Source: an uncultured Bacilli bacterium
Lineage (GTDB): Bacteria; Bacillota_I; Bacilli_A; RF39; UBA660
Assembly: GCA_910584165.1 (NCBI GenBank)
Contig: CAJTZU010000003.1
Span: 126,576 to 190,575 of the forward strand
Length of the DNA stretch: 64,000 nt
Reading direction: 5' to 3'
This document shows, piece by piece, positions 391 through 41,705 of this stretch. Both the position numbers and the translations under genes were made by a program. Every line of letters begins with the position of its first letter. The stretch's first letter is position 1. Below the pieces are notes generated by a model. It was not told the DNA's origin. It did no database searches and saw only the letters and a program-made list of their open reading frames with translations.

Positions 391-452
391 TAATAGAATT
401 ACTATTCTTTTTTGTTTATGGTATAATAAAACTATATAAGGTAAGTGATTGG

Positions 453-2093: not shown

Positions 2094-2094
2094 A

Positions 2095-2121
2095 AAATAG
2101 AGAATAATCTCTATTTTTTTT
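2095..2121. terminator. Bidirectional rho-independent terminator between convergent genes.
   Basis: 9-bp stem AAATAGAGA/TCTCTATTT with loop ATAA and T-run TTTTTTTT. On the opposite strand it gives the A/T-flanked hairpin for the TetR gene. Confidence 0.6.
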
Positions 2122-2692: not shown

Positions 2693-2874
2693 AATATCAC
2701 CTGAGAATATTATACTATTTTTTACTACAAAGTAAAGATAAACTACAATGAGTATGATATTTATACATACATTTCAATAAAATTGTTGGATAAAATACAA
2801 ATCAATTTATTCTGTGCGTGATATTTGTAGAAAAAAATAATAAAATGTTATGACGGATGGAGGGAAAAACAAAT

Positions 2875-5800
2875 ATGAAAAAATTTGGTGAATTTATTTG
2901 CAAACACAAAATAGGTGTTTTCCTATTATCATTAGTTCTATTAGCTGTTTCCTTTTTTGGAAATGCTATGACTAGAATTAATTATGATATTTTAGTTTAT
3001 ATTCCAGAAGATATCGAAACTGTTGAGGGACAAAATATTTTAACGGAAGAATTTAATATGGGGGCTTTCTCAGTAACCATAATCGATAATATGAAACCGA
3101 AAGATGTTTTAGCATTAGAAGAAAAGTTAAAACACGTAGAGGGAGTAAATAAAGTAGTCAGTTTATATGATGTGATAGGAACTACTATTCCACTTGAATT
3201 TTTACCAGAAGAAATTGTTTCAAAAGTGCATCAAGGTGAATCTGATTTACTCTTAATTACTTTTCAAGATTCGACTTCTTCAGAATCTACGTTAGAAGCT
3301 GTTTCTGAAATACGTAAAATTACAAAAGAATCTTGTAAGGTAAGTGGTATGAGCTCAATGGTATTAGATACAATGGAGTTATCAGAAAAAGAAATTGCTA
3401 TTTATGTATGTATTGCTGTAGCTCTTTGTTTATTAGTATTAGAATTATCCTTAGATTCATATTTAGTACCAATATTATTATTAGCTAATATAGGATTTGC
3501 AATTCTATTTAATTTAGGTTCTAATATTATTTTTGGAGAGATTTCTTATATTACAAAAGCATTAGTTGCGGTATTACAGTTAGGTGTTACAACTGATTTT
3601 TCTATCTTTTTGTATCATGCATATGAGAAGGAAAAAGAATTTTGTAAGGCAAAAGAAGAGGCAATGAGTAAGGCGATTCATTCAACATTTACATCTGTAA
3701 CAGGAAGCTCTTTAACAACTATTGCAGGATTTTTAGTATTATGCACTATGAAACTTACTCTTGGTACTGATTTAGGTTTAGTTATGGCGAAAGGAGTACT
3801 ATTAGGGGTTATTTGTGTTTTAACACTTTTCCCAAGTTTATTATTAATTTTTGATAAGTGGATAGAAGGTAGTAGACATCGTTCCATTATTCCTAATTTT
3901 TCAAAATTAAATAGTTGGATTATTAAATATCATATCCCAATATTTATTATTTTCTTAATTTTTTTAGTACCTATGTATTTAGCGTATTCTAAAGTTGATG
4001 TGTACTATAAGATAGATGAGAGTTTACCAAAATCACTTGAAAGTATTACAGCTAATGAAGCATTGAAGGAGGATTTTAATATTGTTTCCCCAGAAATAAT
4101 TCTACTAGATAAAAATATGAAGGCAAGTGATGTAAATGAAATGATAGAGAAAATTGAAGATTTAGATGGTATTGAATTTGTATTATCTTTTTCAAAATTG
4201 AAAGAAAGAGGACTTACAGAAGAAATGCTATCAGAGGATATTGTTTCAGTTTTTGAGAATGACAACTATCAAATGCTTTTAGTAAATTCTAGCTATGAGA
4301 TAGCAAGTAATGAATTGAATGAGCAAATAGAAAAAGTAAATGAAATTTTAAAAGAATATGATTCTAAAGCCATTCTAGCAGGTGAAGGACCTCTTATGAA
4401 TGATTTAGTTACTATTAGTGATCAAGACTTTAGAAATGTAAATGATTCTTCGATTGTTTGTGTTTTATTAATTATGTTTGTTATTTTAAAGTCATTATCA
4501 TTACCATTTTTATTAATATTAACTATTGAATTTGCAATATTTACGAATATGTCTTTTTCTTACTTTGGCGGAGCAGTTTTACCTTTTGTAGCGCCAATTG
4601 TATTAGGAACAATTCAATTAGGAGCAACTATTGATTATGCTATATTAATGACAACAACTTATATAGAAAATAGAAAATTAGAGAGTGATAAAAAGAAGGC
4701 TATGCAAAAGACTTTAGATTATTGTGGAATCTCTATTGTAGTAAGTGGATTATGTTTTTTTGCAGCTACATTTGGAGTAGGTTTATATTCTGAAATAGAT
4801 ATGGTAGGAAGTTTATGCACATTAATTTCTAGAGGTGCCATTATTAGTATGGCAGTAGTACTTATGGTACTTCCTTCTATTTTATTAATATTTGATAAGA
4901 TTATTTTTAAAACGACTTATCACAGAAAGGAGAAAAATATGAAAAATTTAAAAAAAGTGGCAGCCAGTTTTTTAGTAACTTGTATTGCTATTAGTTCAAT
5001 GCCCGTTTCTGCATTAACAAAGGATGAGACAGTTTATACAAAATTAAATACAGATGGTAGTAGAAAGTCTACTTTTGCAATCGAGCATTTAATAAATAAT
5101 GAAAATCTAGATACGATTGAAGATTTGTCTAATTTAAAGAATGTATGGAATATGAATAGCAATCATACATTTAAACAAGAAAAGAATAAATATACATGGT
5201 CTTCTTTAGGTAGTGACATTTATTATCAAGGTATTGTAGAAAAGGATACTCCTGTTACAGAAAGTATAAAATACTATTTAGATGGTAAAGAGAGTACAAT
5301 TCCAGATATGCTTGGAAAAAGTGGAAAAATTAAAATAGAAATTACATATACTAATCATGATAAGCATCAGGTAAAAGTTGCTGGAAAAGAGGAAACTTTA
5401 TATACACCTTTTGTTGTAACAACAGCAACTGTTATTTCTAGTTCTAATAATAAAAATGTAGAAGTAACAAATGGAAAAGTAGTAAGTAATGGTTCCTCTT
5501 ATGTAGTCGTTGCTTTATCCGCACCAGGTTTATATGAAAGTTTAAACATGGATACTTTAAAGGATTTAAATACTGTTATTTTAAGTTATGAAACAGATAA
5601 ATTTGAACTTTCTAGTATTTATTCTATTACTACTCCAAAATTAATTGAAACAGAAGATTTAGAAATTTTCAATAAATTAGATTCTATGTATGATAAATCA
5701 AAATTATTAAAGGATTCTATTGATAAAATAGAAGAGGGCTCTATTGAATTATTAGAAGGAAGTAAAAAGATTGAAAGTGGTTCTAGTTTACTTTATGAAA

Positions 5801-6654
5801 AATTAGAACTTGTATTAGAAAGTATTGGAAGTGTAAAAGATGGTGCGGTTGCACTAGATGACGGATTAAAACAAATCTTAGGACAATTACAATTAATAGA
5901 AAAAGAACTAGAAAATGGAATTAGTGAAAGTAGTATTCAAAGTTTAAAAAGATTGATTTCTACTAATCAAAATACAATGAATCAGTTAATAGAAACGAAT
6001 AAGGGATTAGCTAGTGTTTATGAGCAATATCAATTAAAAAATTATAGTTATGAGCAAGTAATTCAAATGGATTCTACTATGAAATTATATAATGTAAAAA
6101 TGAATTATGAAAATCTATATGAAAAAAATACTCAAATGATTACTCTATTAGGAATGAATAATAAGGCATTAGAAGAAACTTTGAGCAATGTTTCTATGCT
6201 CCAAGAAAAGATTCAGACATTAATTAGTACTTTAAATCTTTATTTATCTCAGTTAGAAGATGGCGCTAAAAAATTATCTGATGGAACTGCTTCACTAAAA
6301 GAAGGAGTAGCTATTATTACTTCTAAAACAAAAGATTTAAAGAATGGAACAAAAGATTTAAAAGAGGGAATTCATACTTTACAAACTGGCATTCATGAAT
6401 TTAATAAGGAAGGTATTACTCCTATTACAAACTTTTTAAACCAAGATGTAAGAAAAGTTACTAATAAAATGGAAGCTCTTGTAAAGTTAAGTGAAGATTA
6501 TCAAACATTTACTATGAAAGATAATAGTACTAATGGTAGTACGAAATTTATTTCAGTAGTGGATTCTGTTAAAATTCCTAAAGAAGTAAAAAAGGTTGAA
6601 AAGAAAAAAGAAAAAACTACATTTATTGATAGAGTAAAAAATTTATTTCAATAA
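2875..6654 (+). CDS. MMPL-family (RND-like) membrane transporter fused in frame to a C-terminal YhgE/Pip-like domain. The C-terminal part has XXXLXXG heptad repeats and coiled coil.
   Basis: The track ORF is 2857..6654. The better start is ATG 2875 after GGAGGG 2860-2865. Two 6-TM bundles, each preceded by a periplasmic domain, fit MMPL topology. The C-terminal half has repeated LxxGxxxLxxG motifs (LLEGSKKIESGSSLL, LDDGLKQILGQLQ, LSDGTASLKEGVAII, LKNGTKDLKEGIHTLQTGIHEF). An internal RBS, ATG and signal-peptide-like segment sit at 4927-5010. Confidence 0.7.
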   Translation: MKKFGEFICKHKIGVFLLSLVLLAVSFFGNAMTRINYDILVYIPEDIETVEGQNILTEEFNMGAFSVTIIDNMKPKDVLALEEKLKHVEGVNKVVSLYDVIGTTIPLEFLPEEIVSKVHQGESDLLLITFQDSTSSESTLEAVSEIRKITKESCKVSGMSSMVLDTMELSEKEIAIYVCIAVALCLLVLELSLDSYLVPILLLANIGFAILFNLGSNIIFGEISYITKALVAVLQLGVTTDFSIFLYHAYEKEKEFCKAKEEAMSKAIHSTFTSVTGSSLTTIAGFLVLCTMKLTLGTDLGLVMAKGVLLGVICVLTLFPSLLLIFDKWIEGSRHRSIIPNFSKLNSWIIKYHIPIFIIFLIFLVPMYLAYSKVDVYYKIDESLPKSLESITANEALKEDFNIVSPEIILLDKNMKASDVNEMIEKIEDLDGIEFVLSFSKLKERGLTEEMLSEDIVSVFENDNYQMLLVNSSYEIASNELNEQIEKVNEILKEYDSKAILAGEGPLMNDLVTISDQDFRNVNDSSIVCVLLIMFVILKSLSLPFLLILTIEFAIFTNMSFSYFGGAVLPFVAPIVLGTIQLGATIDYAILMTTTYIENRKLESDKKKAMQKTLDYCGISIVVSGLCFFAATFGVGLYSEIDMVGSLCTLISRGAIISMAVVLMVLPSILLIFDKIIFKTTYHRKEKNMKNLKKVAASFLVTCIAISSMPVSALTKDETVYTKLNTDGSRKSTFAIEHLINNENLDTIEDLSNLKNVWNMNSNHTFKQEKNKYTWSSLGSDIYYQGIVEKDTPVTESIKYYLDGKESTIPDMLGKSGKIKIEITYTNHDKHQVKVAGKEETLYTPFVVTTATVISSSNNKNVEVTNGKVVSNGSSYVVVALSAPGLYESLNMDTLKDLNTVILSYETDKFELSSIYSITTPKLIETEDLEIFNKLDSMYDKSKLLKDSIDKIEEGSIELLEGSKKIESGSSLLYEKLELVLESIGSVKDGAVALDDGLKQILGQLQLIEKELENGISESSIQSLKRLISTNQNTMNQLIETNKGLASVYEQYQLKNYSYEQVIQMDSTMKLYNVKMNYENLYEKNTQMITLLGMNNKALEETLSNVSMLQEKIQTLISTLNLYLSQLEDGAKKLSDGTASLKEGVAIITSKTKDLKNGTKDLKEGIHTLQTGIHEFNKEGITPITNFLNQDVRKVTNKMEALVKLSEDYQTFTMKDNSTNGSTKFISVVDSVKIPKEVKKVEKKKEKTTFIDRVKNLFQ

Positions 6655-6660
6655 GAAAAA

Positions 6661-6712
6661 AAGTTATACACACGTTTGTCGACAAGTATGTGTATAACTT
6701 TTTGCTTTTTTG
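6661..6712 (+). terminator. Rho-independent terminator after the MMPL/YhgE gene.
   Basis: 12-bp stem AAGTTATACACA / TGTGTATAACTT with a 16-nt loop, followed by TTTGCTTTTTTG. Confidence 0.75.
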
Positions 6713-6813
6713 TGTAAAGAAATAAAATAATGTAAAGTAAATTCGAAGCTCTTCAATTGTTTTTATTTCATTCATAGTTTCACCATAAACATTATATCAT
6801 AGTAAAATGTTTA

Positions 6814-6822
6814 TGGTATAAT
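6814..6822 (+). promoter_or_regulatory. Extended -10 promoter element (TGGTATAAT) upstream of the methyltransferase gene.
   Basis: TGnTATAAT lies about 20 nt upstream of the ATG at 6842. Confidence 0.45.
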
Positions 6823-6841
6823 AGATAAAGAGTGTGATAGT

Positions 6842-7729
6842 ATGAAAGAAATTCCATTATTTTTAATAGAGCGATTAAAAAATCAATACGGTGAAGAATT
6901 AATGAAGGAAATTGTAAAAGGCTTCCAAAAAAAAACAGTCACTTTTAGAATAAATCATTTAAAAACAACTTTAGGAGAAATTGAAAAAGTATTGGAGGAA
7001 GAAGCAATTTTATTTCAAAAGATATTTTGGTTTGATGATGCTTTCTTAATAGAAAATAAAACAGAAGAAGAAATTCGTTTATTAGATATTTATAAAGAAG
7101 GTAAAATTTATTTGCAGTCTTTATCTTCGATGTTACCAGTATTGTTTTTAGACTTAGAAGAGGGAATGAGCATTTTAGATATGGCAGCTGCACCAGGTGG
7201 TAAAACAACTGAGATTGCTTCTATCTATCAGGATAAAATACTAATTACTGCTTGTGAAAAAAATAAGATTAGGGCAGATAGATTACGTTATAATATAAAG
7301 AAGCAAGGTGTTAGAAGAGCAACTGTATTAGAAAGTGATGCCAGTAAATTAGATGAATATTTTTCTTTTGATAGTATTCTATTAGATGCTCCTTGTAGCG
7401 GTAGTGGTACTTTACAAAGGGAAAATAGTAATTCTTATTTTAAAGAAGAACTAATAGAAACAACAAAAAAATTACAAAAAGTTTTATTAAAGAAAGCTGT
7501 TCAAATATTAAAGCCAGGATCCACTATGATTTATTCTACTTGTTCCATTTTAGAAGAAGAAAATGAATTGCAGATAGAAGCCTTATTAAACGAGAAATTA
7601 GTAGAAGTGGTTCCTCTAGATTTTCCTAATGATATACCACTTCTCCCATCTAAAATATTTGGTACAGTAGTGGTAAAACCAACTTCTTTATATGAAGGAT
7701 TTTTTATAGCAAAATTAAGAAAGAGGTAA
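6842..7729 (+). CDS. RsmB/RsmF (NOL1/NOP2/Sun) family SAM-dependent RNA m5C methyltransferase.
   Basis: Motifs DMAAAPGGKT (SAM binding), LLDAPCSGSGTL (catalytic Cys) and STCS. Confidence 0.8.
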   Translation: MKEIPLFLIERLKNQYGEELMKEIVKGFQKKTVTFRINHLKTTLGEIEKVLEEEAILFQKIFWFDDAFLIENKTEEEIRLLDIYKEGKIYLQSLSSMLPVLFLDLEEGMSILDMAAAPGGKTTEIASIYQDKILITACEKNKIRADRLRYNIKKQGVRRATVLESDASKLDEYFSFDSILLDAPCSGSGTLQRENSNSYFKEELIETTKKLQKVLLKKAVQILKPGSTMIYSTCSILEEENELQIEALLNEKLVEVVPLDFPNDIPLLPSKIFGTVVVKPTSLYEGFFIAKLRKR

Positions 7730-7733
7730 TAGT

Positions 7734-8366
7734 ATGAAAATAATATTCGGTACTAGTAATAAAAGAAAAACAGAAGATATTGTGAAAGTAATAAATGAAA
7801 ATCGATTTGATTTAGAAGTTTTAACTTTAGAAGATATTGGGTGGAATTTAGCAGATATTGAAGAAGATGGTATAACATTAGAAGAAAATTCACTTATTAA
7901 GGCAAATGCTATATTAAACTTCTGCAAAAATCATTCTATCCATTATCCAATAATAACAGATGATGCAGGTCTTTTTATTAATGCGTTAGATGGTAGACCA
8001 GGAATTTATACTGCACGCTATGCAGAAGAGGAACGAATGAAAAATCCTTCTTTACCATCCTATGAGTGTGTTAATAAAGTATTACGTGAATTAGAGGGAA
8101 TAGAAAATAGAAAGGCCTATTATCAATGTGTAGTTACTTGTATGAAAGCTGATGGTAGTTTTAAGCAGAACATTGGAAGAACAGAAGGGGAAATTGCTGC
8201 TGAGATTACAGAGCCTATTATTAGACCTTACTTTTATTCTATTTTTAACTATCAAGGTATTAATTTTAGAAATTTAAATGAAGAAAAATTAAAAGAAACT
8301 TATCGTTTTCAAGCTTTAAAACAAGCATTAGAGGAACTTTTAAAAGATGAACAAAATATGGATTAA
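7734..8366 (+). CDS. rdgB: Non-canonical purine NTP pyrophosphatase (Ham1/RdgB family).
   Basis: The N-terminal IIFGTSNKRK and the DDAGLF...ALDGRPGIYTARYA core match the Ham1 fold. About 200 aa. Confidence 0.75.
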   Translation: MKIIFGTSNKRKTEDIVKVINENRFDLEVLTLEDIGWNLADIEEDGITLEENSLIKANAILNFCKNHSIHYPIITDDAGLFINALDGRPGIYTARYAEEERMKNPSLPSYECVNKVLRELEGIENRKAYYQCVVTCMKADGSFKQNIGRTEGEIAAEITEPIIRPYFYSIFNYQGINFRNLNEEKLKETYRFQALKQALEELLKDEQNMD

Positions 8367-8395
8367 GAGGGTAAAGATATTGATGAGGTAATAGT

Positions 8396-9025
8396 ATGAA
8401 AATAGTAAATCCTAAAATAAAAGAATTAGAAATTGGAAATTTGCACGAAACGATTAAAACTGGTGATTTATCTTTTTTTCAATATGAAAAGGAAAGAATA
8501 TTGGGGAAATATAATATTTCCGATTGTACGATAGATAGTTGTATTTTTAAAAATATTTCATTTGAAAATATTTCATTTGAAAATGTAGAGTTAGTAGATG
8601 TCATTTTTGAAAACTGTGATTTATCTAATAAATGCTTTGATAAAGAAGCTGTCATTCGAGTTATTTTTAAAAATTGTAAGATGACTGGTACAACATTTAT
8701 GGATAGCAAATTAGAAAATATTCAGTTTTTAGAGTGTAGCAATAAATATGTGAATTTTGCTAGTGCAAGTATGACAAATGTTATAATAAAAGATAGTGAT
8801 TTTGAAGAAACCTCCTTTCTAAGTACTAAAATAAAAAATCTAGAATTAGACAATGTTAAATTTAAAGGTGCAGAGTTTATCGGTACTACTTTAAAAGATG
8901 TAGATTTTTCTAATTCTGATATTTATGGAGCTAAATTTGATGTTAATTCTTTAAAAGATATGATTATTGATTCTATGCAAGCATCTGTTTTAGTGGGCCT
9001 TTTAGGAGTAAAAATAAAAGATTAA
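8396..9025 (+). CDS. Pentapeptide-repeat protein.
   Basis: Consecutive A(D/N)LxF-like pentapeptides (NISFENISFENVELVDVIFENCDLSNKCF...). Contains a perfect 15-nt tandem duplication at 8552-8581. Confidence 0.7.
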   Translation: MKIVNPKIKELEIGNLHETIKTGDLSFFQYEKERILGKYNISDCTIDSCIFKNISFENISFENVELVDVIFENCDLSNKCFDKEAVIRVIFKNCKMTGTTFMDSKLENIQFLECSNKYVNFASASMTNVIIKDSDFEETSFLSTKIKNLELDNVKFKGAEFIGTTLKDVDFSNSDIYGAKFDVNSLKDMIIDSMQASVLVGLLGVKIKD

Positions 9026-9052
9026 GTTGTACTTTTGTATAGCTTTATAGTA

Positions 9053-9061
9053 TGTTATAAT
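9053..9061 (+). promoter_or_regulatory. Extended -10 element TGTTATAAT.
   Basis: TGnTATAAT lies 19 nt upstream of the ATG at 9080. Confidence 0.4.
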
Positions 9062-9079
9062 GTTGTTAGAAGGTGAATT

Positions 9080-9871
9080 ATGGAGCAGTTAGAACTAGAA
9101 GTAAAAGTATTAGATATTGATGAAAAAAAGTTTATAAAGAAGTTAGAAAAGCTAGGTGCTAAAAAGATAGAAGAGTGTTATCAGTACTTATATACCTATG
9201 ATTTAGCAACTATTTACGGTAGGTTTGTAGATATTTTAACACAGTTAAATCATCCTGTAAGTAATATTAAATATGAAACAGCTCTTGCTAAATTGAAATT
9301 GTTTTTCTTTGATGTTGATAATTTGCTAAAAGAAAAAGAGAAAGAAAAATTAGAAACAATAGTAGGAGAACGAAATTTATCGAATCTATTAGAGAAAGAT
9401 TCTTTACTAACAATTTTAAATGATAAGAAATTAGATAAATTTTTTCAGAAATATCACAATAATGATTCGAAATGGATTAGGGTAAGAGAGACAAATGGGA
9501 AAACGACTATTGCTGTGAAACATATTTTAGCGCCCAATTCCACTCATTTACAACAGATGAAAGAAACAGAAATCGAAGTTCCGAGTATAGAAGAAGCTAA
9601 TAATTTATTAGAAGCATTAGGATTTTCTTATAAAAGCTATCAAGAGAAAAAAAGAATTACTTATTTATTAGATAAACATGAGATTGATATTGATACATGG
9701 CCTGGAATTCCAACTTATTTTGAAGTAGAGGGAAATTCATTAGAAGATTTAGAAGAATTATTATTGAAATTAGGATATTCTATGGAGGATACTGTTTCTT
9801 GTACAGCCGATAAAGTTTATGAAAGATATGGAAAGTCACAATTTGAGAAACGTGAAATGAAATTTGAATAG
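9080..9871 (+). CDS. Hypothetical protein, possibly with an N-terminal CYTH-like (triphosphate tunnel) domain.
   Basis: The N-terminus LELEVKVLDIDEKKFIKKLEKLGA resembles the ExExK start of CyaB/CYTH enzymes. Weak, by eye only. Confidence 0.45.
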   Translation: MEQLELEVKVLDIDEKKFIKKLEKLGAKKIEECYQYLYTYDLATIYGRFVDILTQLNHPVSNIKYETALAKLKLFFFDVDNLLKEKEKEKLETIVGERNLSNLLEKDSLLTILNDKKLDKFFQKYHNNDSKWIRVRETNGKTTIAVKHILAPNSTHLQQMKETEIEVPSIEEANNLLEALGFSYKSYQEKKRITYLLDKHEIDIDTWPGIPTYFEVEGNSLEDLEELLLKLGYSMEDTVSCTADKVYERYGKSQFEKREMKFE

Positions 9872-32888: not shown

Positions 32889-33632
32889 ATGAAAAAAAAG
32901 AGAATGAAAAAAGTTCAAAATTTATGGTGTAGCTTTTTATTGATTGCTATATTTACTATTTTCCAACTTTATCAAAATCATATAAAGGATGCCAGTGCTA
33001 CATTAAAGAAATCGTCAAATATAAATTCAGTTCCTTCTTATTCTTTAAATGATATTCCAACTTATAATGGGGAACTTTCTATTATAATTGATAATAACAT
33101 ACCGCTTTTTAAGGAAGAAGATTATACGAATAAAAGTTTTGAAATTTATAGCGAATTAGATTCACTAGGAAGAGTTGGAACTGCTTTTGCTAATGTTGGG
33201 ATGGATTTAATGCCAACTGAAAAAAGAGGAAGCATTGGAATGGTTAAACCAAGTGGTTGGCACACTGTAAAATATGATATAGTAGATGGAAAATATTTAT
33301 ATAATCGATGTCATTTAATTGGATATCAATTAACAGGGGAAAATGCGAATGAAAAAAATTTAATGACTTGCACGAGAGCGATGAATACAATTGGTATGTT
33401 ACCATTTGAAAATCGAGTAGCAGAATACATTAAGGAAACTAAAAATCATGTTCTTTATCGTGTAACTCCTATTTATGAGAACGATAATTTGTTAGCAAAT
33501 GGAGTAATTATAGAAGCTAGTTCTGTAGAAGATAGAGGTTCTAGTTTACAATTTTATGTATATGTCTATAATGCTCAGGAAGGTATTGAAATAAATTATC
33601 AAACAGGAGAAAGTAAATTGAAAGGGGATTAG
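32889..33632 (+). CDS. Secreted DNA/RNA non-specific endonuclease (EndA/streptodornase-like).
   Basis: Signal peptide. NRCHLIGYQLTGENANEKNLMTCTRAMN resembles the D/NRxH...N active-site block of DNA-entry and sugar-non-specific nucleases. Confidence 0.5.
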   Translation: MKKKRMKKVQNLWCSFLLIAIFTIFQLYQNHIKDASATLKKSSNINSVPSYSLNDIPTYNGELSIIIDNNIPLFKEEDYTNKSFEIYSELDSLGRVGTAFANVGMDLMPTEKRGSIGMVKPSGWHTVKYDIVDGKYLYNRCHLIGYQLTGENANEKNLMTCTRAMNTIGMLPFENRVAEYIKETKNHVLYRVTPIYENDNLLANGVIIEASSVEDRGSSLQFYVYVYNAQEGIEINYQTGESKLKGD

Positions 33633-33785
33633 AAAACTAATTCTTTTTTTGTCACTTAGAAGTCACTTTCCTTTTCTATAATTACTTTGTAGAGTGTTTA
33701 AGTCTATTTTTGAAGAAAAAAGTATCAAAGAATAGTAAAATATAAGAGAAAAAGTGTTATTTTATAAGTTATTATAAGAAAAATG

Positions 33786-33794
33786 TGCTATAAT
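33786..33794 (+). promoter_or_regulatory. Extended -10 element TGTGCTATAAT for the dlt-like operon.
   Basis: TGnTATAAT lies 37 nt upstream of the ATG at 33831. It is read as 'MCYN' by the ORF finder. Confidence 0.45.
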
Positions 33795-33830
33795 GGCTTT
33801 GGAATAGCAAATGAAAAAGAAGGAAGTGGC

Positions 33831-35348
33831 ATGATGTATAACATAATTGATTATTTAGAACAATCTGCTACCAGATATAAGGATAAAATAGCGGTTATAG
33901 AAGAGGATAAACAAATTACGTATTCTAATTTGCAAAATAGTAGTAAAGTTGTAGGTTCTTATTTTGCTGAGCAAAAAGTATTTAATGAGCCTATTCTTGT
34001 ATTTATGGATAAAGGAATTGATACCTTAATTACTTTTTTTGGAATTGTTTATGCAGGATGTTATTATTCGTTAATAAATCCAGAATTACCAGAAAATAGA
34101 ATTAACCAAATAAAAAATGTGACTGGCGCTAGATTTGTTGTTACAGATGATGAGCATCAGGAATTGGCGAGTACTTATTTTAAAGATATTCAAGTAAAAA
34201 ATGTAAAAAAATTAAAACAAGGTAACTTAAATGAAGCCGCTTTATTAGAGGCTAGGATAAATCATATTGATTATGACCCATTATATGTTAACTTTACTTC
34301 TGGTTCAACGGGGGTACCAAAAGGTGTAGTTATTTCTCACCGCTCTGTCATTGATTTCATTGATAAATTTACAGAAATTTTTCACTTTCATGAAAATGAG
34401 CGAATTGCAAATCAAGCGCCATTTGATTTTGATGTATCCGTAAAAGATATTTATTCAAGTATTAAAGTAGGAGCTACTTTGGTTATTGTGCCAAAGAAAT
34501 ATTTTTCCACTCCATCTGCATTACTAGATTATTTATGTGATAATGAAGTAACAACGATGACTTGGGCAGTATCCGCTTTATGTTTGATTACTACTTTTCA
34601 TGGATTAGATTATAAAGTTCCTACTACTGTTGAAAAAATTATCTTTAGTGGAGAAGTAATGCCACTAAAGCATTTGAAACAATGGATGGAACATTTACCG
34701 AATACGATGTTTGTTAATATTTATGGTCCTACTGAGATAACCTGTAATTGTACTTATCATATCATTGATCGAAATCGTGAGTATGATGATAAAATACCAA
34801 TTGGCAAAGCATTCCCAAACGAGAGAGTAATTCTTTTAGATGATGAGAATAATGAAGTTCATGAACCAAATAAAGTAGGAGAGTTGTGTGTAGCAGGTAC
34901 CTCTTTGGCGCTCGGTTATTATAATAATGAAGAACAAACTAGTAAGCATTTTGTTCAAAATCCTAATATTAAAAACTATATTGAATATATTTATCGTACA
35001 GGTGATTTGGCTTATTACAATAAAGAGGGAGAACTTGTATTTAATGGTCGAAAGGATTTTCAAATTAAATACCTAGGTCATCGTATTGAATTAGAAGAAA
35101 TTGATAAAGCTATTATGGAATATGATGAAGTTATTAGAAGTTGCACTATTTTTGATGAGGAAAAGTCAAAAGTATATGGATTTTATATTGGTGATATTTC
35201 TAAAAAAGATTTACATGCAAAATTACGTAGTGCACTACCAGCTTATATGATACCAACTGTTTTAGTTCAAATGGAAGAATTTCCAATGACAAAAAATGGC
35301 AAAATAGATAGAAAAAAACTAATGGAATTAAAGGATGTGAAGAAGTAA
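33831..35348 (+). CDS. DltA-like carrier-protein ligase (adenylate-forming enzyme, AMP-binding superfamily).
   Basis: The ATG at 33831 follows AAGGAAGTGG. The track ORF starts at 33783, inside the promoter. Core motifs NFTSGSTGVPKGVVISH (A3), YGPTE (A5), YRTGDL (A8), GRKDFQIKYLGHRIELEEI (A10-like). About 505 aa, the typical DltA size. Confidence 0.8.
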   Translation: MMYNIIDYLEQSATRYKDKIAVIEEDKQITYSNLQNSSKVVGSYFAEQKVFNEPILVFMDKGIDTLITFFGIVYAGCYYSLINPELPENRINQIKNVTGARFVVTDDEHQELASTYFKDIQVKNVKKLKQGNLNEAALLEARINHIDYDPLYVNFTSGSTGVPKGVVISHRSVIDFIDKFTEIFHFHENERIANQAPFDFDVSVKDIYSSIKVGATLVIVPKKYFSTPSALLDYLCDNEVTTMTWAVSALCLITTFHGLDYKVPTTVEKIIFSGEVMPLKHLKQWMEHLPNTMFVNIYGPTEITCNCTYHIIDRNREYDDKIPIGKAFPNERVILLDDENNEVHEPNKVGELCVAGTSLALGYYNNEEQTSKHFVQNPNIKNYIEYIYRTGDLAYYNKEGELVFNGRKDFQIKYLGHRIELEEIDKAIMEYDEVIRSCTIFDEEKSKVYGFYIGDISKKDLHAKLRSALPAYMIPTVLVQMEEFPMTKNGKIDRKKLMELKDVKK

Positions 35349-36508
35349 TGGATTATGAGAAGTTAATACAAGAACATGGAACTCCAACATACCTTTATGA
35401 TATCGAAACACTTATTAATCGTGTTAATTACTTAAAAAGCAAATTCGATGATGAAATTCACATGGTTTACGCTGTTAAGGCAAATACTTTTATTGCAAAA
35501 GAATTAGAACAAGATGTAGAGCGTTATGAAATCTGTTCTCCGGGAGAATTTAGAATATGCAATAATCTTTCTATTGATAGAAAGAAAATGGTAATTTCAG
35601 GCGTTTATAAGGACTATGAAACAATTGAAAATATGATTTCTAGTTATGATGATATTGGAAAATATACTATTGAGTCCGTTTCTCAATATGAATTATTAAA
35701 AGAACTTACTAGAAAGTATGAGCGACATATTCATATTTTAATTCGTCTAACATCAGGCAATCAATTTGGTGTCAATGAAGAAGAATTTTTAACTATTTTA
35801 AAAGATAAAAACGAGTTTATTATGGTAGATGGAATTGAATACTTTTCAGGTACCCAAAAACATTCTATTAAAAAAATTAATAGAGAAGTTGATTACTTAG
35901 TGGAATTTATAAGTAAGTTGGAAAGTTCTTTAGGAATATCTTTAAAAGAGGTAGAATTCGGACCAGGGTTACCAGTTTTTTACTTTCAAGATGATGAATT
36001 TGATGAAGAAGAATTTTTAACAGAAGTAAACTTAGCTCTTCGCAAAATGAAAGGAAAGGTTATTTCTTTGGAAATAGGGCGTAGTATTGCTGCTAGTTGT
36101 GGTACTTATCTCACGAAAGTAGTAGATATGAAGAGTAATAAAAATGGAAATTTTACATTGGTAGATGGTGGTATTCATCAACTCGTTTATTATGGTCAAA
36201 CAATGGCTATGAGAATTCCTTTTTTTGATGTAATGCCAAAAAGGGATGGAGAGCTAAATACGTATAATTTATATGGTTCTTTATGTACTATCAATGATAT
36301 TTTAGTGAAAAATATCACTGTTCCAAAGTTAGAAATAGGGGATGTTTTCCTATTTAAAAATGTTGGTGCTTATTCATCAACAGAAGGTATTTCTTTATTT
36401 TTAAGTAGAGATTTACCAAAAGTATTAATTTGTAGTAGAGATAAAAAAATTAGTGTTGTTAGGGATAGAATAAAAACAAGTGAATTAAATTTCCCTAACT
36501 ATCAATAG
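35348..36508 (+). CDS. PLP-dependent decarboxylase of the Orn/DAP/Arg decarboxylase (fold III, LysA-like) family.
   Basis: N-terminal TIM-barrel with YAVKAN (PLP-Lys block), C-terminal beta-domain with NVGAYSS (GAY motif). ATGG overlap with the ligase gene. Confidence 0.75.
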   Translation: MDYEKLIQEHGTPTYLYDIETLINRVNYLKSKFDDEIHMVYAVKANTFIAKELEQDVERYEICSPGEFRICNNLSIDRKKMVISGVYKDYETIENMISSYDDIGKYTIESVSQYELLKELTRKYERHIHILIRLTSGNQFGVNEEEFLTILKDKNEFIMVDGIEYFSGTQKHSIKKINREVDYLVEFISKLESSLGISLKEVEFGPGLPVFYFQDDEFDEEEFLTEVNLALRKMKGKVISLEIGRSIAASCGTYLTKVVDMKSNKNGNFTLVDGGIHQLVYYGQTMAMRIPFFDVMPKRDGELNTYNLYGSLCTINDILVKNITVPKLEIGDVFLFKNVGAYSSTEGISLFLSRDLPKVLICSRDKKISVVRDRIKTSELNFPNYQ

Positions 36509-36521
36509 GAGTGTGTTTAAA

Positions 36522-36749
36522 ATGGAAAAATTAATTGAAATATTAGAAAGTTTACAACCAGATGTAGATTATGAAACAACAGAAAATTTAATTGACGGAA
36601 GATATTTAGATTCGCTAACAATCTTATCTTTAGTGGCTGAGATAGAAGAAGAATTCGATGTTGAGATTCCAACAGTAGAGATTATTCCAGCCAATTTTAA
36701 TTCTGCAAAAAAAATATATGAGATGATTGAGAGATTAAGAGAAGAATAG
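36522..36749 (+). CDS. Small carrier protein (DltC/acyl-carrier-protein like).
   Basis: 75 aa. YLDSLTILSLVAEIEEEFDVEI carries the phosphopantetheine-attachment DSL motif. The ATG at 36522 follows AGGAGTG. The track start at 36513 is GTG. Confidence 0.75.
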   Translation: MEKLIEILESLQPDVDYETTENLIDGRYLDSLTILSLVAEIEEEFDVEIPTVEIIPANFNSAKKIYEMIERLREE

Positions 36750-36759
36750 AGGATTTATA

Positions 36760-38349
36760 ATGAATTACTTTGATTTAACTTATATTTTTCTTTTCTTACC
36801 AATTGTCATTATTGTTTATAATATAATGCCAAAAAAGATTAAACCTGCTATTTTGTTATTAGCAAGTTTTGTCTTCTTTTTTATGATTAGTAAGTTTTTG
36901 ATTGCCTTTTTACTTTTATCTATCTTATCGGTTTATTTAGGCACAAGATGGATGTCAAAGGTTGATAGGAAACGTGATGAAGTTTTAGAGAGTACTGAAA
37001 AAGAACAAAAAAAAGAAATTAAAAATAAGTATAGGCGAAGAAAAAAATTAATATTAATTTTAGTAATATTATTTAATATTACTTTTCTATTTGCTTTTAA
37101 ATATTTAAAGTTCTTTACTTTAAATACTAATTTTTTACTAAATTGTATGCATGTTGGATGGAGAATAAAAGTATTTAAATTTATGGCCCCAATTGGAATT
37201 TCTTATTATACTTTACAAGCCATATCGTATATAGTAGATGTTTATCAAGAAAAAGTAGAAGCAGATAAAAATATTATAAGAGTCTCTTTATATTTATCTT
37301 TTTTTCCACAGATTATGGAAGGACCTATTGCTAGATATAGTCAAACAGCACATGCTTTATATGAGCGTGTTAGAGTGAATTTTCAAAATTTTTGCTTCGG
37401 TTATCAACGTATCTTATATGGCCTTTTTAAAAAGTTTGTTATAGCAGATAGATTAAATGTAGTAGTGGGAAAAATATTTAGTAATTATCAAAATTATGAT
37501 GGTATTACCATTTTTATGGGGATTGCTTTTTATACGTTATTACTTTATATGGAATTTTCTGGCACAATGGATGTTGTAATTGGTAGTGGAGAAATCTTTA
37601 ATGTAAAAATACCTGAGAACTTTAGACAGCCTTTTTTCGCCAAAAACATATCAGAGTTTTGGACAAGATGGCATATTAGTTTAGGTGCTTGGTTTAAAGA
37701 CTATATTTTCTATCCTGTTTCTTTGTCAAAGCCAATGAAGAAATTGACGATGAGGGCAAGAAAAGGATTAGGAAATCATTTAGGGGCTTTAATTAGTGGC
37801 GCTATTGCTCTGTTTGCTGTTTGGTTTTTAAATGGATTATGGCATGGTGCAGGGTGGACTTTTCTATTTTATGGTTTATATCAATTTACCTTAATATTAA
37901 GTGGTAATATAGCAGAACCATTTATAAAAGATTTATGCACAAAATTAAAAATTAATCGCCAAAATATTGCTTATCGAATTTTTCAATCTGTAAAAATGAC
38001 TTTTTTTGTATTCATTGGAGAGCTATTTTTTAGAGCTCCTACTTTAGAAGTAGGATTTGGAATGTTAAAAATGATGTTTACGAAGATTCATATTTCAACT
38101 CTTTGGAATGGCAATTTATTTAAGTTAGGCATGGATAAAAAAGATTTCTTAATTGTCTTTTTAGCCCTTATAGTCATTTTTATAGTCAGTATTTTACGAG
38201 AGAAGAATATTAATATTCGCGAAAGTATCAGTAAGAAAAATATTGGTATTCGCTGGTTAATTTATTATGCTCTTATTTTAGCGATTATTATATTTGGAGC
38301 TTATGGACCAGGTTATATTCCAGTAGATCCAATTTATGCAGACTTCTAG
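36760..38349 (+). CDS. MBOAT-family membrane O-acyltransferase, DltB-like.
   Basis: Multi-TM protein with FWTRWHISLGAWFKDYIFYPV and a conserved His block. 529 aa. Follows the carrier gene by 10 nt. Confidence 0.85.
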   Translation: MNYFDLTYIFLFLPIVIIVYNIMPKKIKPAILLLASFVFFFMISKFLIAFLLLSILSVYLGTRWMSKVDRKRDEVLESTEKEQKKEIKNKYRRRKKLILILVILFNITFLFAFKYLKFFTLNTNFLLNCMHVGWRIKVFKFMAPIGISYYTLQAISYIVDVYQEKVEADKNIIRVSLYLSFFPQIMEGPIARYSQTAHALYERVRVNFQNFCFGYQRILYGLFKKFVIADRLNVVVGKIFSNYQNYDGITIFMGIAFYTLLLYMEFSGTMDVVIGSGEIFNVKIPENFRQPFFAKNISEFWTRWHISLGAWFKDYIFYPVSLSKPMKKLTMRARKGLGNHLGALISGAIALFAVWFLNGLWHGAGWTFLFYGLYQFTLILSGNIAEPFIKDLCTKLKINRQNIAYRIFQSVKMTFFVFIGELFFRAPTLEVGFGMLKMMFTKIHISTLWNGNLFKLGMDKKDFLIVFLALIVIFIVSILREKNINIRESISKKNIGIRWLIYYALILAIIIFGAYGPGYIPVDPIYADF

Positions 38350-39325
38350 GAGTGATAGTATGAAGAAATTTTTTAAAAGTATTGTTTTTGTATTTATTTT
38401 ACTTCTTTTAGTAGAAACTCTTACATTAGTATTATTACCAGGCAGAAATGTTAAAAAATATGGAGTATTTGAAGTAGCAGCTTATGAAATTTTAGGGGAA
38501 GAAGAAAATACGATTGATGTTATAGCAGCAGGAGATAGTTTAGTTTATAGTTCTCTTTCTCCTATGGAAATATGGAAGCATTTTGGTTATACTGTTTTTG
38601 ACTGTGCCTCTGCTGCCCAAATTATTCCGGATACTTATGATTTTTTGAAAGTTGGAATTAAAAGTCAACATCCTAAGATTGTGCTTATGGAAGCAAATGT
38701 TCTTTTTAGAGATCCTGCCAAAAAGAAACAAGAGAATAAACTACTTGATTATTTAAAGTATTATTTTCCAATTGCTAAATATCATGATAATTGGAAAAAG
38801 TATATTACTTATGGTAGAAAAAAAAATTGGGCAAATGTTTATAAGGGATATAAGTTTATCAATAAAGTAGAGCCTGCAACTGAAATTCATCCTATGAGTG
38901 GTTCTAAAAAAAGAAGGGAAATTATAAAAAGTAATTTACAAACTTTTGATGATATTGTAAAACTTTGTGAAGAGAATAATGTAAAACTAGTATTAGTCGC
39001 TTTCCCAACACAGAGTACATGGAGTTCTAAAAAGCATAATTCTACTCAGGATTTAGCAGAAAAATATGGTTTAGAATTTATAGATTTGAATTTAGTTGAT
39101 TTAGGAATCAATTGGGAAACAGATACTAAAGATGCTGGAAATCATTTAAATTATAAAGGCGCAATAAAAGTTTCCAAATATATTGGAAACTACTTAGAAA
39201 GTACAAATATATTAAAAGATCATCGCAAAGATGAAAAATATAAATCTTATATAAATGCTTATCGCATTTATTATCAGAATCATAAAGAACAATTAGATAA
39301 AATAGAAACGACTGCTATAGAATAA
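38336..39325 (+). CDS. DltD-like or SGNH-type extracytoplasmic protein (acyl-transfer/esterase partner).
   Basis: N-terminal TM anchor, VIAAGDSLVYSSL (GDS block). Overlaps the MBOAT gene by 14 nt. Confidence 0.6.
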   Translation: MQTSRSDSMKKFFKSIVFVFILLLLVETLTLVLLPGRNVKKYGVFEVAAYEILGEEENTIDVIAAGDSLVYSSLSPMEIWKHFGYTVFDCASAAQIIPDTYDFLKVGIKSQHPKIVLMEANVLFRDPAKKKQENKLLDYLKYYFPIAKYHDNWKKYITYGRKKNWANVYKGYKFINKVEPATEIHPMSGSKKRREIIKSNLQTFDDIVKLCEENNVKLVLVAFPTQSTWSSKKHNSTQDLAEKYGLEFIDLNLVDLGINWETDTKDAGNHLNYKGAIKVSKYIGNYLESTNILKDHRKDEKYKSYINAYRIYYQNHKEQLDKIETTAIE

Positions 39326-39648
39326 TCACCATCATGGGAAATTGATAAAGAAAGATTTTCAATAAGAAAGTCTTTTTTTATTTGATTATGTAAGATAATA
39401 AAAGGGGCATTATTATTATCATGTGATATTTCGATATCTTTCATGGAATAATGATTGATACCTTTTTTTAATGCTTTTAAAAAAGCTTCTTTTGCAGCAA
39501 ACAAACCAGCTATTGTAGAAAGATTAGAATTTCTTTTTTGAATATATTGTAATTCTTTTTCAGTAAAAATAGAATTCATAATAGTTTTATTGTTTACGAG
39601 GTCTTGAAATCTATGAATATTTACTAAATCGATACCGTTTGAAATCAT
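39280..39648 (-). CDS. acpS: Holo-(acyl-carrier-protein) synthase (4'-phosphopantetheinyl transferase, AcpS type).
   Basis: 122 aa. GIDLVNIHRF ... ISHDGDYSIAVV fit the AcpS family. Converges on, and overlaps by 46 nt, the 3' end of the DltD-like gene. Confidence 0.75.
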   Translation of the reverse strand: MISNGIDLVNIHRFQDLVNNKTIMNSIFTEKELQYIQKRNSNLSTIAGLFAAKEAFLKALKKGINHYSMKDIEISHDNNNAPFIILHNQIKKDFLIENLSLSISHDGDYSIAVVSILSNCSL

Positions 39649-39734
39649 AACATCACCAAAAATATTATATCACATTTAATTTGACAAAAGAGTGTGAAAC
39701 AGTTATTATAATACACTTGTTAGGGGAGATATAC

Positions 39735-41705
39735 GTGTCAAAAGTAAGAGTAGAATACTTATGTACAAATATTGATAATGAAAGAAAATTAAAATGGTTA
39801 GAAACTGCCAAATTTTCAAGAGTAGCAGAAGATCATGAGGTAGTAGATTTCTCTTTTGAAGAATATTTATTTAGATTTCGTAAGGAAACACAAAAATTTA
39901 CGGATTCAACAGGGGATATTACGTTAAGAGTACAGCAAGAAAAATACAAAAATTGGAAAGAAAGAAGTCAGTTTAGTATTTTTAGTTTAGATGGAAATTC
40001 TATTCGCTGGGATAATAGTATTATTCATTCTTTAGCCGTTTATTTAGCTAGTCATCCATTAGCGATTCCATACTTTTTAGAAGAAAATGCAGTTAATATT
40101 GTTGGATTATTTTTAGGAGAATCTCTTCTTGTCAATTCTATGGCTTTAGCGCCCCAATTTGGTTATGAAGAATTTAAACTATGGGAAGCACAACCTATTT
40201 CTGAAAAAAATTATCGTGCTAGAAATTTTGAAGCAAAATATAAATTATCTTTATTTTTAGGAGTATTAGATGAATTATTAGAATTGGGTGTCAATGTATC
40301 AGAATTCTCTTTTGTTGATTTAAGAAAAGTAAATACATTTATAGATACTCTTCAAGCACCACTTTGGAATGAAAAATTGATTAGTACTATGAATGCTTCT
40401 ACTTATAGACGTTGTGATGGGCAAAATTTTGAAGAAAAAGACTTATTAGGATTTATTGGGTTTGATGATGTTTCTACTTTCTTAGATTCTGTTATGCGTC
40501 TAGTAGAGTCTGAATATTATGTTCATTTTATTGAGGAACCAGTAACTATGAATCCTAAAGCAGTAGTAGCGTTACCTTACTTTCATACAACCAATATGGA
40601 TTTTCTGAAGAAGGAAGATTTAGTAGAAATCAAGGGATTATGTGAAACATTAAAGAATAAATTAAGAGAAGTAAAGTATTCTTCAGAAATAAAAGTATTA
40701 AAGAGAAAATTAGAACAACTTAGAAAAAGATTGTCTGAAAAGGAAGATAAGAAAGATTTTGATTATAGTGAAATCTTAGAAGAACTAGAATCTCTTTATC
40801 AAGAAATTTTAGCTACTTCTTCTAAAGAAAAAGAAGAACTATTAAGCCTATTAAAGCAATTGCTAGAGGAAAGCAACATAGACTTTAGAGTATCAGAAGA
40901 ATATAGAAAAGTAGAAGTTCCAAAAGAAAGTGCTAAAAAACTGGATATAGCTTCTAAAGTACAAGAATTAGATAGAAGAGTAAGTAGTTTAGAAACTAGA
41001 GTATCTACTTTAGAAAAACAGTTATTAGATTATATCAAAAATGGTGGAGAAATTCCTTCTATTACTGCTGATTCAGTATCTCGGGAAGAAGTTATTCGAT
41101 TAATTTTAGAGTATAGACCTGTTACTTTTAAAGAGAAATTAAGAAGATTAGAGGTTTTAAAACTATTAAAAGTAGGGACGATAGGCACTCTTTTAGGAGG
41201 ATTATTATTTATTAGTGGTTCTGCCCCTAGAATATTAGAAAATCCTTCTATAGTAATTCCAACAGCTCCTATTGTATCAGAAGAAATTAAACCAGAACCA
41301 ACATTGCCTCCAGACCTACCAAAATTAGAAGAATCAGTAGAAGAAACTCTAACTCCATCTATCCCAGTAGAAGAAGAGCAAGTTACTTTGAAACCATTAG
41401 AAGAAATAGTTAGAGAAGTAATTCGCGGTAATTGGGGAGATGGACAAGTACGTAAAGAGGCATTAGAAGAAGCAGGTTATGATTTCTTTACTGTTCAATC
41501 TTATGTAAATTATGTAAAAGAAAATAATGTACCATTTAATCAATTAAGACCAGTAGAAGAAATCATTAGGGAAGTAGCTAGTGGAAAATGGGGAGAAGGA
41601 GAAGAGATGATTGCTCGTTTACGTACTGTTGGCTATGATTATGAATCACTTAAAGAATTTGTTGAGGAATTCAAACAATCTGCTGCTACCAATCAGTATC
41701 ATTAA
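39735..41705 (+). CDS. Membrane protein with a cytoplasmic N-terminal domain, coiled coil, one TM helix, a Pro/Glu-rich linker and two C-terminal CW_7 (Cpl-7-type) peptidoglycan-binding repeats.
   Basis: GTG start at 39735 after AGGGGAG. The track ORF starts at 39681. TM VGTIGTLLGGLLFISGSAP. Repeats IVREVIRGNWGDGQVRKEALEEAGYDFFTVQSYVNYV and IIREVASGKWGEGEEMIARLRTVGYDYESLKEFVEEF match the Cpl-7 repeat consensus (GxWGxGxxRxxxLxxAGYDYxxVQxxVN). Confidence 0.6.
   Translation: MSKVRVEYLCTNIDNERKLKWLETAKFSRVAEDHEVVDFSFEEYLFRFRKETQKFTDSTGDITLRVQQEKYKNWKERSQFSIFSLDGNSIRWDNSIIHSLAVYLASHPLAIPYFLEENAVNIVGLFLGESLLVNSMALAPQFGYEEFKLWEAQPISEKNYRARNFEAKYKLSLFLGVLDELLELGVNVSEFSFVDLRKVNTFIDTLQAPLWNEKLISTMNASTYRRCDGQNFEEKDLLGFIGFDDVSTFLDSVMRLVESEYYVHFIEEPVTMNPKAVVALPYFHTTNMDFLKKEDLVEIKGLCETLKNKLREVKYSSEIKVLKRKLEQLRKRLSEKEDKKDFDYSEILEELESLYQEILATSSKEKEELLSLLKQLLEESNIDFRVSEEYRKVEVPKESAKKLDIASKVQELDRRVSSLETRVSTLEKQLLDYIKNGGEIPSITADSVSREEVIRLILEYRPVTFKEKLRRLEVLKLLKVGTIGTLLGGLLFISGSAPRILENPSIVIPTAPIVSEEIKPEPTLPPDLPKLEESVEETLTPSIPVEEEQVTLKPLEEIVREVIRGNWGDGQVRKEALEEAGYDFFTVQSYVNYVKENNVPFNQLRPVEEIIREVASGKWGEGEEMIARLRTVGYDYESLKEFVEEFKQSAATNQYH

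Follow-up and report, generated by a model that had tools for sequence, protein, structure and literature searches.

The D-alanylation (Dlt) machinery, a drug target and the textbook means by which Gram-positive bacteria tune their surface charge, has a close but altered counterpart that raises an obvious question: what does a pyridoxal phosphate (PLP) decarboxylase do in the middle of a Dlt-like operon? This arrangement is found on contig CAJTZU010000003.1 of an uncultured Bacilli bacterium (GenBank assembly GCA_910584165.1), in a stretch of 64,000 nucleotides that is referred to here as the window. Genes for an amino-acid adenylating ligase, a PLP decarboxylase, a carrier protein, an MBOAT (membrane-bound O-acyltransferase) and an SGNH protein follow one another on the forward strand, and a gene for AcpS converges on their end. 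An earlier reading of the DNA alone, which we call the sequence-only reading, had proposed that an amino acid is loaded onto the carrier, decarboxylated in situ and exported onto the cell envelope by the MBOAT and SGNH proteins. Checks of the ligase pocket, the LysA motifs, the carrier Ser and the synteny all came out in favour of this proposal, and the operon probably encodes a pathway for carrier-dependent acylation of the envelope, with decarboxylation on the carrier generating the acyl group.

A scan of species-representative genomes yielded 589 candidate stretches, of which the best 80 were kept and examined. The decarboxylases of these 80 loci are 45-89% identical to that of the window, and the loci come from Bacilli metagenome-assembled genomes (MAGs), Agathobaculum, Flintibacter porci, Pseudoflavonifractor phocaeensis, Traorella, Faecousia, Acetobacterium carbinolicum, A. 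wieringae, Catenibacillus scindens, Oscillospiraceae and Lachnospiraceae. For synteny, six-frame open reading frames (ORFs) of the loci were searched with the six window proteins, and 67 loci had enough flanking DNA to be eligible. The neighbourhood survey that the sequence-only reading had suggested gave a clear result: the ligase, decarboxylase, carrier, MBOAT and SGNH genes are found together on one strand in 66 of these 67 loci, all from other species. The association of the five genes is therefore far beyond chance. In locus L007 (37% decarboxylase identity) the five genes are still together and the ligase code is identical, with a changed order and orientation. The wider decarboxylase family is large: a word-indexed search gave over 4,600 relatives at E <= 1e-10, and an exhaustive search of representatives gave 263 clusters (50% identity) at E <= 1e-30.

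The decarboxylase matches both Orn_Arg_deC_N and Orn_DAP_Arg_deC, and its identification as a fold-III PLP decarboxylase with YAVKAN and GAY motifs was borne out, the YAVKAN lysine being K44. It has the same fold as the diaminopimelate (DAP) decarboxylase LysA and the same catalytic framework of Lys, Glu, Arg, Cys and Tyr (K44, E242/R245, C313 and Y342), and LysA is its best match in a single-sequence PDB search (2e-26). Its score against the lysA equivalog TIGR01048 is 165.1 bits, where the cutoff is 297.9. LysA enzymes hold the distal carboxylate and amine of DAP with their RPxLY and CES(G)D motifs. In residue alignments with four LysA structures and BtrK, the window enzyme retains the PLP lysine, E-x-G-R, the catalytic Cys and GAY. 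All four LysA structures contain [AG][GA]MN..[LI]RP.LY and CE[ST][SG]D, where the window decarboxylase has DGGIHQLVYYGQT and CTIND, its RPxLY site reading VYYGQT. BtrK, the L-glutamyl-[BtrI carrier protein] decarboxylase, diverges from LysA at the same sites (DGGMHH and LCTPED), and DGG[IM]H and LCT are common to the two proteins. These replacements are conserved in 40 family members down to 29% identity (DGGIHHLxYYGQ, GSLCT and GAYSxTEGIxLFLSRDLP). When the PDB was ranked with a profile of this 40-member alignment, BtrK came top with 230 bits, followed at 205 bits by 6knh (SbnH, which we take to be a decarboxylase of a conjugated amino acid), and entries named plainly as DAP decarboxylase scored at most 191 bits.

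Because the RPxLY and CES(G)D motifs are missing, the lysA score is below its cutoff and BtrK is the top profile match, the window enzyme can be predicted with confidence not to be LysA, and a further difference from LysA is that it invariably shares an operon with a carrier and a ligase. It looks like a member of a subfamily specialised for carrier-bound substrates. The name 'BtrK' also occurs in a review of clostridial sporulation, where it denotes a kinase that is unrelated and was set aside. In loci L088 and L089, decarboxylases of 31-32% identity with the same signature stand beside a carrier and an AMP-ligase, with the MBOAT missing. The three genes together have the look of a portable module. 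The L088 trio (1-9155) has two GT2 glycosyltransferases and a heparinase II/III-like protein as neighbours, and the L089 trio (3764-9479) adjoins a radical-SAM enzyme gene.

The ligase had been described as DltA-like, of which the adenylation family stood and the DltA membership did not. It matches AMP-binding (224.7 bits) and the TIGR01733 amino-acid adenylation domain (331 bits, cutoff 317), while reaching only 303.1 of the 559.85 bits required by the DltA equivalog TIGR01734 and 317 of the 476 bits required by a second DltA model. A profile of the ligase family scored TycA at 302, GrsA at 296, DltA at 293, SrfA-C at 292 and HitB at 221 bits among PDB entries. The substrate pocket, read by motif anchoring on A4, A5 and A10, gave the code D201 V202 K205 S248 I271 S273 I297 C305 N306 K491, and 79 of the 80 sequences compared (that of the window and 79 distinct homologues) conform to DVKS[LIM]S[LIV]CNK. 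A code so nearly invariant therefore implies that a single substrate is conserved. In Bacillus cereus DltA, the methyl group of D-Ala lies in a cavity formed by Leu, Met and Cys, of which the Cys is enantioselective (PMC8972799). Val202, Lys205 and Ser273 occupy these positions in the window ligase, which keeps the amine-binding Asp201; the pocket comparison thus supported the sequence-only reading, and the ligase, as judged from its sequence, is not DltA. The invariant Lys205 in a small polar pocket would fit an acidic amino acid bound through its side-chain carboxyl with the alpha-carboxylate left free. An Arg may also stand at code position 239 in the microcystin NRPS modules that activate the side-chain carboxyl of methyl-Asp or Glu, but a search of the literature for this gave no match and the parallel is given little weight.

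The carrier matches PP-binding (25.2 bits), and the phosphopantetheine Ser that the sequence-only reading had wanted checked is present as Ser31 within LDSL and at least 90% conserved in 79 carrier sequences. Its best NCBIfam match is DltC, at 35.7 bits for a cutoff of 68. The convergent gene encodes an AcpS (TIGR00516, 83.6 bits, cutoff 59.8), which likely primes the carrier.

The closest precedents for such a trio come from natural-product pathways, in which thiotemplated decarboxylation has been proven for BtrK, CtaF and FlvO (PMC11350588) and for VinO (PMC11284099). BtrJ, BtrI and BtrK convert Glu to gamma-aminobutyrate (GABA) on a stand-alone carrier through a side-chain thioester (PMC11350588); in the anaerobic producer of closthioamide, CtaD, CtaE and CtaF turn tethered Asp into beta-Ala and do not accept the free amino acid (PMC7183216); FlvN, FlvL and FlvO likewise convert Asp to beta-Ala (PMC11350588); and VinN, VinL and VinO act on 3-methyl-Asp, VinN refusing the decarboxylated acid (PMC11284099). 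BtrK, the precedent named by the sequence-only reading, is joined by CtaF, VinO and FlvO. The window trio resembles these systems in its ATP-dependent loader, stand-alone carrier and PLP decarboxylase of the Orn/DAP/Arg family, and its loader is of the adenylation-domain type, as are VinN and FlvN. It differs in that its decarboxylase forms a distinct subfamily with the signatures DGGIHQxxYYGQ, GSLCT and LFLSRDLP (BtrK being the one of these enzymes whose sequence was compared), in that its ligase lies outside the VinN/HitB clade, and in that the product is predicted to enter an MBOAT-SGNH relay, whereas those trios feed the cytoplasmic assembly of aminoglycosides, polythioamides and polyketides. 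A transglutaminase-like protein, CtaJ, has been proposed for the final coupling step of closthioamide biosynthesis, and a parallel to it occurs in L006 (4931-8071), where a 1046-residue gene call joins the decarboxylase to Ig-like and transglutaminase-core domains, either as a fusion or through a frameshift. After the 1046-residue gene, this locus continues with the ligase, whose code is DAKSSVLGVK, the carrier and the beginning of an MBOAT.

These precedents also bear on the order of the two steps. The decarboxylase could act first on a free amino acid (Asp, Glu or DAP) and the ligase could then load the product, a sequence of events that would give an identical end product on the envelope and that accords with the many free-substrate decarboxylases of the family and with the position of the ligase outside the beta-amino-acid ligase clade. 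We regard it as improbable, however, as the LysA motifs are missing and those regions are BtrK-like, BtrK is the top profile match, CtaF refuses free Asp and VinN refuses the decarboxylated acid (PMC7183216, PMC11284099), and the invariant Lys205 suggests that the substrate is still anionic when it is bound by the ligase.

Downstream of the trio, the MBOAT matches PF03062 (45.1 bits, cutoff 27), and its only NCBIfam match is the DltB model TIGR04091, at 134.3 bits for a cutoff of 375. DltB structures are its sole sequence relatives in the PDB (E ~4e-17), and its WHISL aligns with the catalytic WHMSL. The earlier description of this protein as DltB-like thus stands for the family and the catalytic His, with a score below the DltB equivalog cutoff and with a C-terminal tail that had gone unnoticed. 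Hydropathy analysis showed two additional C-terminal hydrophobic helices in comparison with DltB, and the protein ends in ...VDPIYADF. The last six residues follow P-[IM]-Y-A-x-F in 80 of 80 complete homologues, in which P, Y and F are invariant. The FxYxxF acyl-shuttle motif is borne in Dlt systems by a separate microprotein, DltX. PatA-type MBOATs have it fused to themselves by way of two additional helices, and there its Tyr was shown to ferry the acyl group to the partner SGNH protein (PMC12148441). The tail of the window MBOAT matches this motif at the sequence level, and no DltX-like small ORF with such a C-terminus was found on either strand of 33001-40000. The MBOAT can thus be read as a hybrid of a DltB-like core and a PatA-style fused acyl-shuttle tail.

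The last protein of the operon, ORF5, had been called DltD-like. It has no match to DltD or to any other family in Pfam and NCBIfam, and a sequence search of the PDB returned nothing meaningful. An AlphaFold2 model made from the single sequence had a predicted local distance difference test (pLDDT) score of 39, and one made with 46 homologues reached 93.5 and has an SGNH fold. G58-D59-S60 and D258/H262 are invariant, and an N-terminal transmembrane helix is present. From this model, ORF5 is an SGNH-fold protein and not a DltD family member, so that the generic fold in the earlier description survived and the DltD assignment did not. Loci L068 (3053-8541) and L087 (7310-12779) read ligase, decarboxylase, MBOAT, SGNH, carrier, MBOAT, SGNH and hence contain a second MBOAT-SGNH pair, which suggests one acyl donor serving two different acceptors.

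Taken together, these features allow a pathway to be proposed. AcpS would convert the 75-residue carrier into its holo form. The ligase would adenylate the side-chain carboxyl of an acidic amino acid and attach the amino acid to the carrier as a thioester; Asp201 would hold the amine, and the free alpha-carboxylate would be bound by the invariant Lys205. The PLP decarboxylase, which is translationally coupled to the ligase, would then strip the alpha-carboxyl from the tethered substrate to give beta-alanyl-S-carrier (or GABA-S-carrier). At the cytoplasmic face, the MBOAT would take up the loaded carrier and use His305 to move the acyl group to its own extracytoplasmic Tyr526. Finally, Ser60 of the SGNH protein would accept the acyl group and esterify an envelope acceptor, for which a teichoic acid, a different glycopolymer of the wall or a lipid may serve, and so give it a cationic amine. 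Among the substrates that the sequence-only reading had offered as examples, Asp and Glu are retained and DAP was rejected. Asp, giving beta-Ala, is our leading candidate, although we advance it tentatively, because the adenylation-domain precedents FlvN and VinN use Asp-type substrates, because the ligase pocket is small and because a GABA ester could, by our own chemical reasoning, lactamise; Glu comes second and is less likely. The pocket, with Ser273 and with Leu, Ile or Val at code position 322, is small for DAP, and the CES Glu that in LysA presumably binds the distal amine is missing from the decarboxylase.

Several points weigh against this pathway or parts of it. Its chemical steps, its substrate and its acceptor are extrapolated from gene families, operon structure, conserved residues and synteny, and the sequence does not discriminate between Asp, Glu and other dicarboxylic amino acids. 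The case for side-chain activation consists of Lys205 and the logic of the pathway. The ligase is a generic A domain of the non-ribosomal peptide synthetase (NRPS) type that is no nearer to beta-amino-acid ligases, of which HitB scored 221 bits in the PDB comparison. The presumed Asp/His pair of the SGNH protein is spaced as DxxxH, the usual spacing being DxxH. The AcpS gene, correctly placed by the sequence-only reading at the operon end, is linked to the operon only in the Bacilli clade nearest the window (9 of 64 loci); it is linked as well in a Ca. Coprovivens MAG with flanks unlike those of the window. Clustering of the flanks of the loci revealed no recurrent genes for acceptor synthesis or substrate supply, recovering only a two-component system and assorted ABC transporters. 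Finally, L042, the sole eligible locus without MBOAT and SGNH genes, has the ligase, decarboxylase and carrier followed by rpsL-rpsG-fusA-tuf. Either a real loss or a MAG mis-join may apply to L042 (6286-11092).

The lack of linked acceptor-polymer genes is also what might be expected if the product were a secreted or membrane small molecule, or if a lipid or protein were acylated in place of a wall polymer, as part of a non-canonical thiotemplated natural-product pathway. Every proven thiotemplated decarboxylation feeds secondary metabolites, and the distant trios adjoin radical-SAM (L089) or glycosyltransferase (L088) genes. This nevertheless seems quite unlikely to us, given that the characterised bacterial MBOAT-SGNH pairs all acylate envelope polymers (PMC12148441), that the operon has no condensation, ketosynthase or tailoring genes, and that across many families it forms a compact unit of five genes, frequently beside a two-component system. 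A different role for the PLP enzyme, in which it would epimerise or otherwise alter the aminoacyl group on the carrier and the D-aminoacyl carrier would be the form exported, by analogy with D-Ala, is very improbable. Fold III does include alanine racemase, weak Ala_racemase_N matches occur within the decarboxylase family and an alpha-thioester would acidify the alpha-proton, but both decarboxylase domains, Cys313 and the GAY/E346 region are kept, the strong relatives are all decarboxylases, and the cationic Lys205 of the ligase pocket would be left unexplained. That this is an ordinary dlt operon with a housekeeping lysA-type gene inserted by chance is contradicted by the evidence and hardly credible: the best specific NCBIfam matches of ligase, carrier and MBOAT are indeed DltA, DltC and DltB, yet at scores far under their cutoffs (303 versus 560, 36 versus 68 and 134 versus 375), the D-Ala-selecting Cys has become Ser and the Met has become Lys, neither a DltX ORF nor a DltD family match was found for the operon, and a decarboxylase without LysA motifs is present in 66 of 67 loci.

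Carrier-dependent envelope acylation with decarboxylation on the carrier would combine parts that are otherwise found apart. With Dlt, the operon shares a stand-alone A-domain ligase, a carrier of ~75 residues, a DltB-like MBOAT core with its His and a membrane-anchored extracytoplasmic SGNH protein; it differs in the decarboxylase between ligase and carrier, in a pocket of Val/Lys/Ser against Leu/Met/Cys, and in a Tyr motif fused to the MBOAT on two extra helices, where Dlt has a separate DltX. DltB has ~400 residues and no fused tail, compared with 529 residues here. With PatA/PatB, the operon shares a C-terminal hexapeptide with an invariant Tyr on two extra transmembrane helices of the MBOAT and a separate SGNH protein (PMC12148441), and it differs in having a ligase and a carrier of its own, together with a phosphopantetheinyl transferase in one clade, and in the first residue of the motif, which is Pro in place of Phe. 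AlgI/AlgJ and WssH/WssI presumably also count as acetyl-CoA-dependent MBOAT-SGNH pairs. Non-Dlt MBOAT-SGNH pathways have been stated to use acyl-CoA and to lack a carrier protein (PMC12148441), a statement to which this operon is a counter-example.

Two further systems share some of these components. The exosortase A-associated pair also consists of an AMP-forming ligase and a fold-III PLP decarboxylase in an exopolysaccharide context, and the window ligase and decarboxylase score 208.6 and 144.2 bits against TIGR03098 and TIGR03099 (cutoffs 592.35 and 478.45). We assume that this pair belongs to Gram-negative PEP-CTERM loci and lacks the MBOAT-SGNH pair found here. AlmEFG adds glycine to Vibrio lipid A with a DltA-like ligase and a DltC-like carrier, and is thus an envelope charge change that does not involve D-Ala; it relies on a lipid A acyltransferase at the cytoplasmic face and has neither an MBOAT-SGNH relay nor a decarboxylase. 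What appears to be new in this operon is that a thiotemplated decarboxylation module is joined to an MBOAT-SGNH relay that is Dlt-like and depends on a carrier. The sequence-only reading knew of no such system, and we found no description of one in the full-text literature, a source in which most subscription journals are not covered.

The operon is present in at least 80 species-level genomes, and its cultured gut and acetogen carriers include Agathobaculum, Flintibacter, Pseudoflavonifractor, Catenibacillus and Acetobacterium. It is conceivable, if still short of likely, that gut and other anaerobic Firmicutes have in it a second widespread pathway of envelope aminoacylation, beside or instead of Dlt, that installs an omega-amino acyl ester, likely beta-alanyl derived from Asp on the carrier. 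If the proposed pathway is correct, abundant commensals would display a non-alpha amino acid on their envelope, a new modification and possibly an immune-relevant structure. This would be a distinct cationic decoration, maybe more resistant to hydrolysis, with a bearing on antimicrobial-peptide resistance and host recognition. The export machine would be carrier-dependent like DltB yet self-shuttling like PatA, and DltX-type shuttles and carrier proteins would prove to be combinable in different ways.

At the level of the genes, all six ORFs of the cluster were found essentially where the sequence-only reading had placed them (Table 1), and profile searches that it had proposed matched AMP-binding, Orn_Arg_deC_N with Orn_DAP_Arg_deC, PP-binding and MBOAT. 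The five forward-strand genes, from ligase to SGNH protein, are translationally coupled and make up one operon. The reported start/stop overlap was confirmed, the ligase stop and decarboxylase start sharing the sequence TAATG, and AGGAG-type ribosome-binding sites precede the carrier, MBOAT and ORF5 genes, with gaps of at most 13 nt. The AcpS gene overlaps the 3' end of the SGNH gene by 46 nt.

Table 1. Positions in the window of the operon genes, the convergent acpS and associated sequence elements
Feature	Position	Strand	Basis
Extended -10 promoter-like element TGTGCTATAAT, 5' of operon	33784..33794	+	Consensus match only
Stand-alone amino-acid adenylating ligase, NRPS A-domain type, 505 aa	33831..35348	+	Pfam and NCBIfam
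Fold-III PLP decarboxylase, putative carrier-protein-associated subfamily, 386 aa	35348..36508	+	Family matches, LysA/BtrK alignments
Acyl/peptidyl carrier protein, 75 aa, predicted phosphopantetheine Ser31 (codon 36612-36614)	36522..36749	+	PP-binding
MBOAT, 529 aa, DltB-like core (His305) and two extra C-terminal transmembrane helices	36760..38349	+	Pfam, hydropathy
Putative acyl-Tyr site of the MBOAT, C-terminal acyl-shuttle motif P-I-Y526-A-D-F	38329..38346	+	
Membrane-anchored extracytoplasmic SGNH-fold acyltransferase/esterase (ORF5), 321 aa	38360..39325	+	Structure prediction
AcpS-type holo-carrier-protein synthase, convergent	39280..39648	-	TIGR00516

Two start codons deserve comment. 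The longest ligase ORF opens at ATG 33783, which is overlapped by TGTGCTATAAT, and because this codon falls within the extended -10 element it is best read as a spurious start, the real one being 33831, as the sequence-only reading had it; the ribosome-binding site GAAGGAAGTGG lies 5' of 33831. The 521-residue ligase in JGI and NCBI records appears to reflect the false start at 33783, taken by some gene callers. For ORF5, the earlier start at 38336 gives way to 38360, which is most likely correct because it is preceded by the ribosome-binding site AGGAG and because public gene calls have 321 residues. Names for the window proteins were not found in public database records. Identical contigs are present in JGI samples 3300006167 and 3300006168 and in GCA_948728675.1. 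The window is AT-rich (~27-30% GC) with a uniformly positive GC skew; over positions 1-64000 every 2-kb bin has a positive skew and the forward strand holds almost all ORFs, a pattern that fits one leading-strand segment of a replichore in a low-GC Bacilli MAG.

A response-regulator and histidine-kinase pair stands directly upstream on the same strand in 19 Clostridia loci, the kinase ending 4-567 bp before the ligase, and is missing from the clade of the window itself. An inducible modification of the envelope would be expected to be under control of this sort. For the single pair tested, that of L031, the best NCBIfam matches include the VanR/VanS families, below cutoff. Loci with the pair include L029, L031, L048, L055, L058, L065, L072, L073, L075, L078, L082 and L083, where it lies at about 4.8-7.4 kb in locus coordinates.

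The genes that flank the operon in the window are unrelated to it: those upstream encode secreted nuclease, metallo-beta-lactamase-fold, HD and NUDIX proteins, and those downstream encode a protein with CW_7 repeats, an EamA transporter and a DUF362 protein. The CW_7 gene (39681-41705, forward strand), directly downstream of acpS, encodes a protein of 656-674 residues with a long coiled-coil/acidic region, a hydrophobic segment and, at the C-terminus, two CW_7 repeats of the cell-wall-binding kind. It follows the operon in three near-identical contigs (L001-L003) and not in Ca. Coprovivens L004. Directly 5' of the promoter-like element lies a gene for an Endonuclea_NS_2 endonuclease (32889-33632, forward strand) with an N-terminal hydrophobic segment, which is probably secreted, and a similar DNA/RNA non-specific endonuclease gene is found upstream in L008, L009, L025 and L073.

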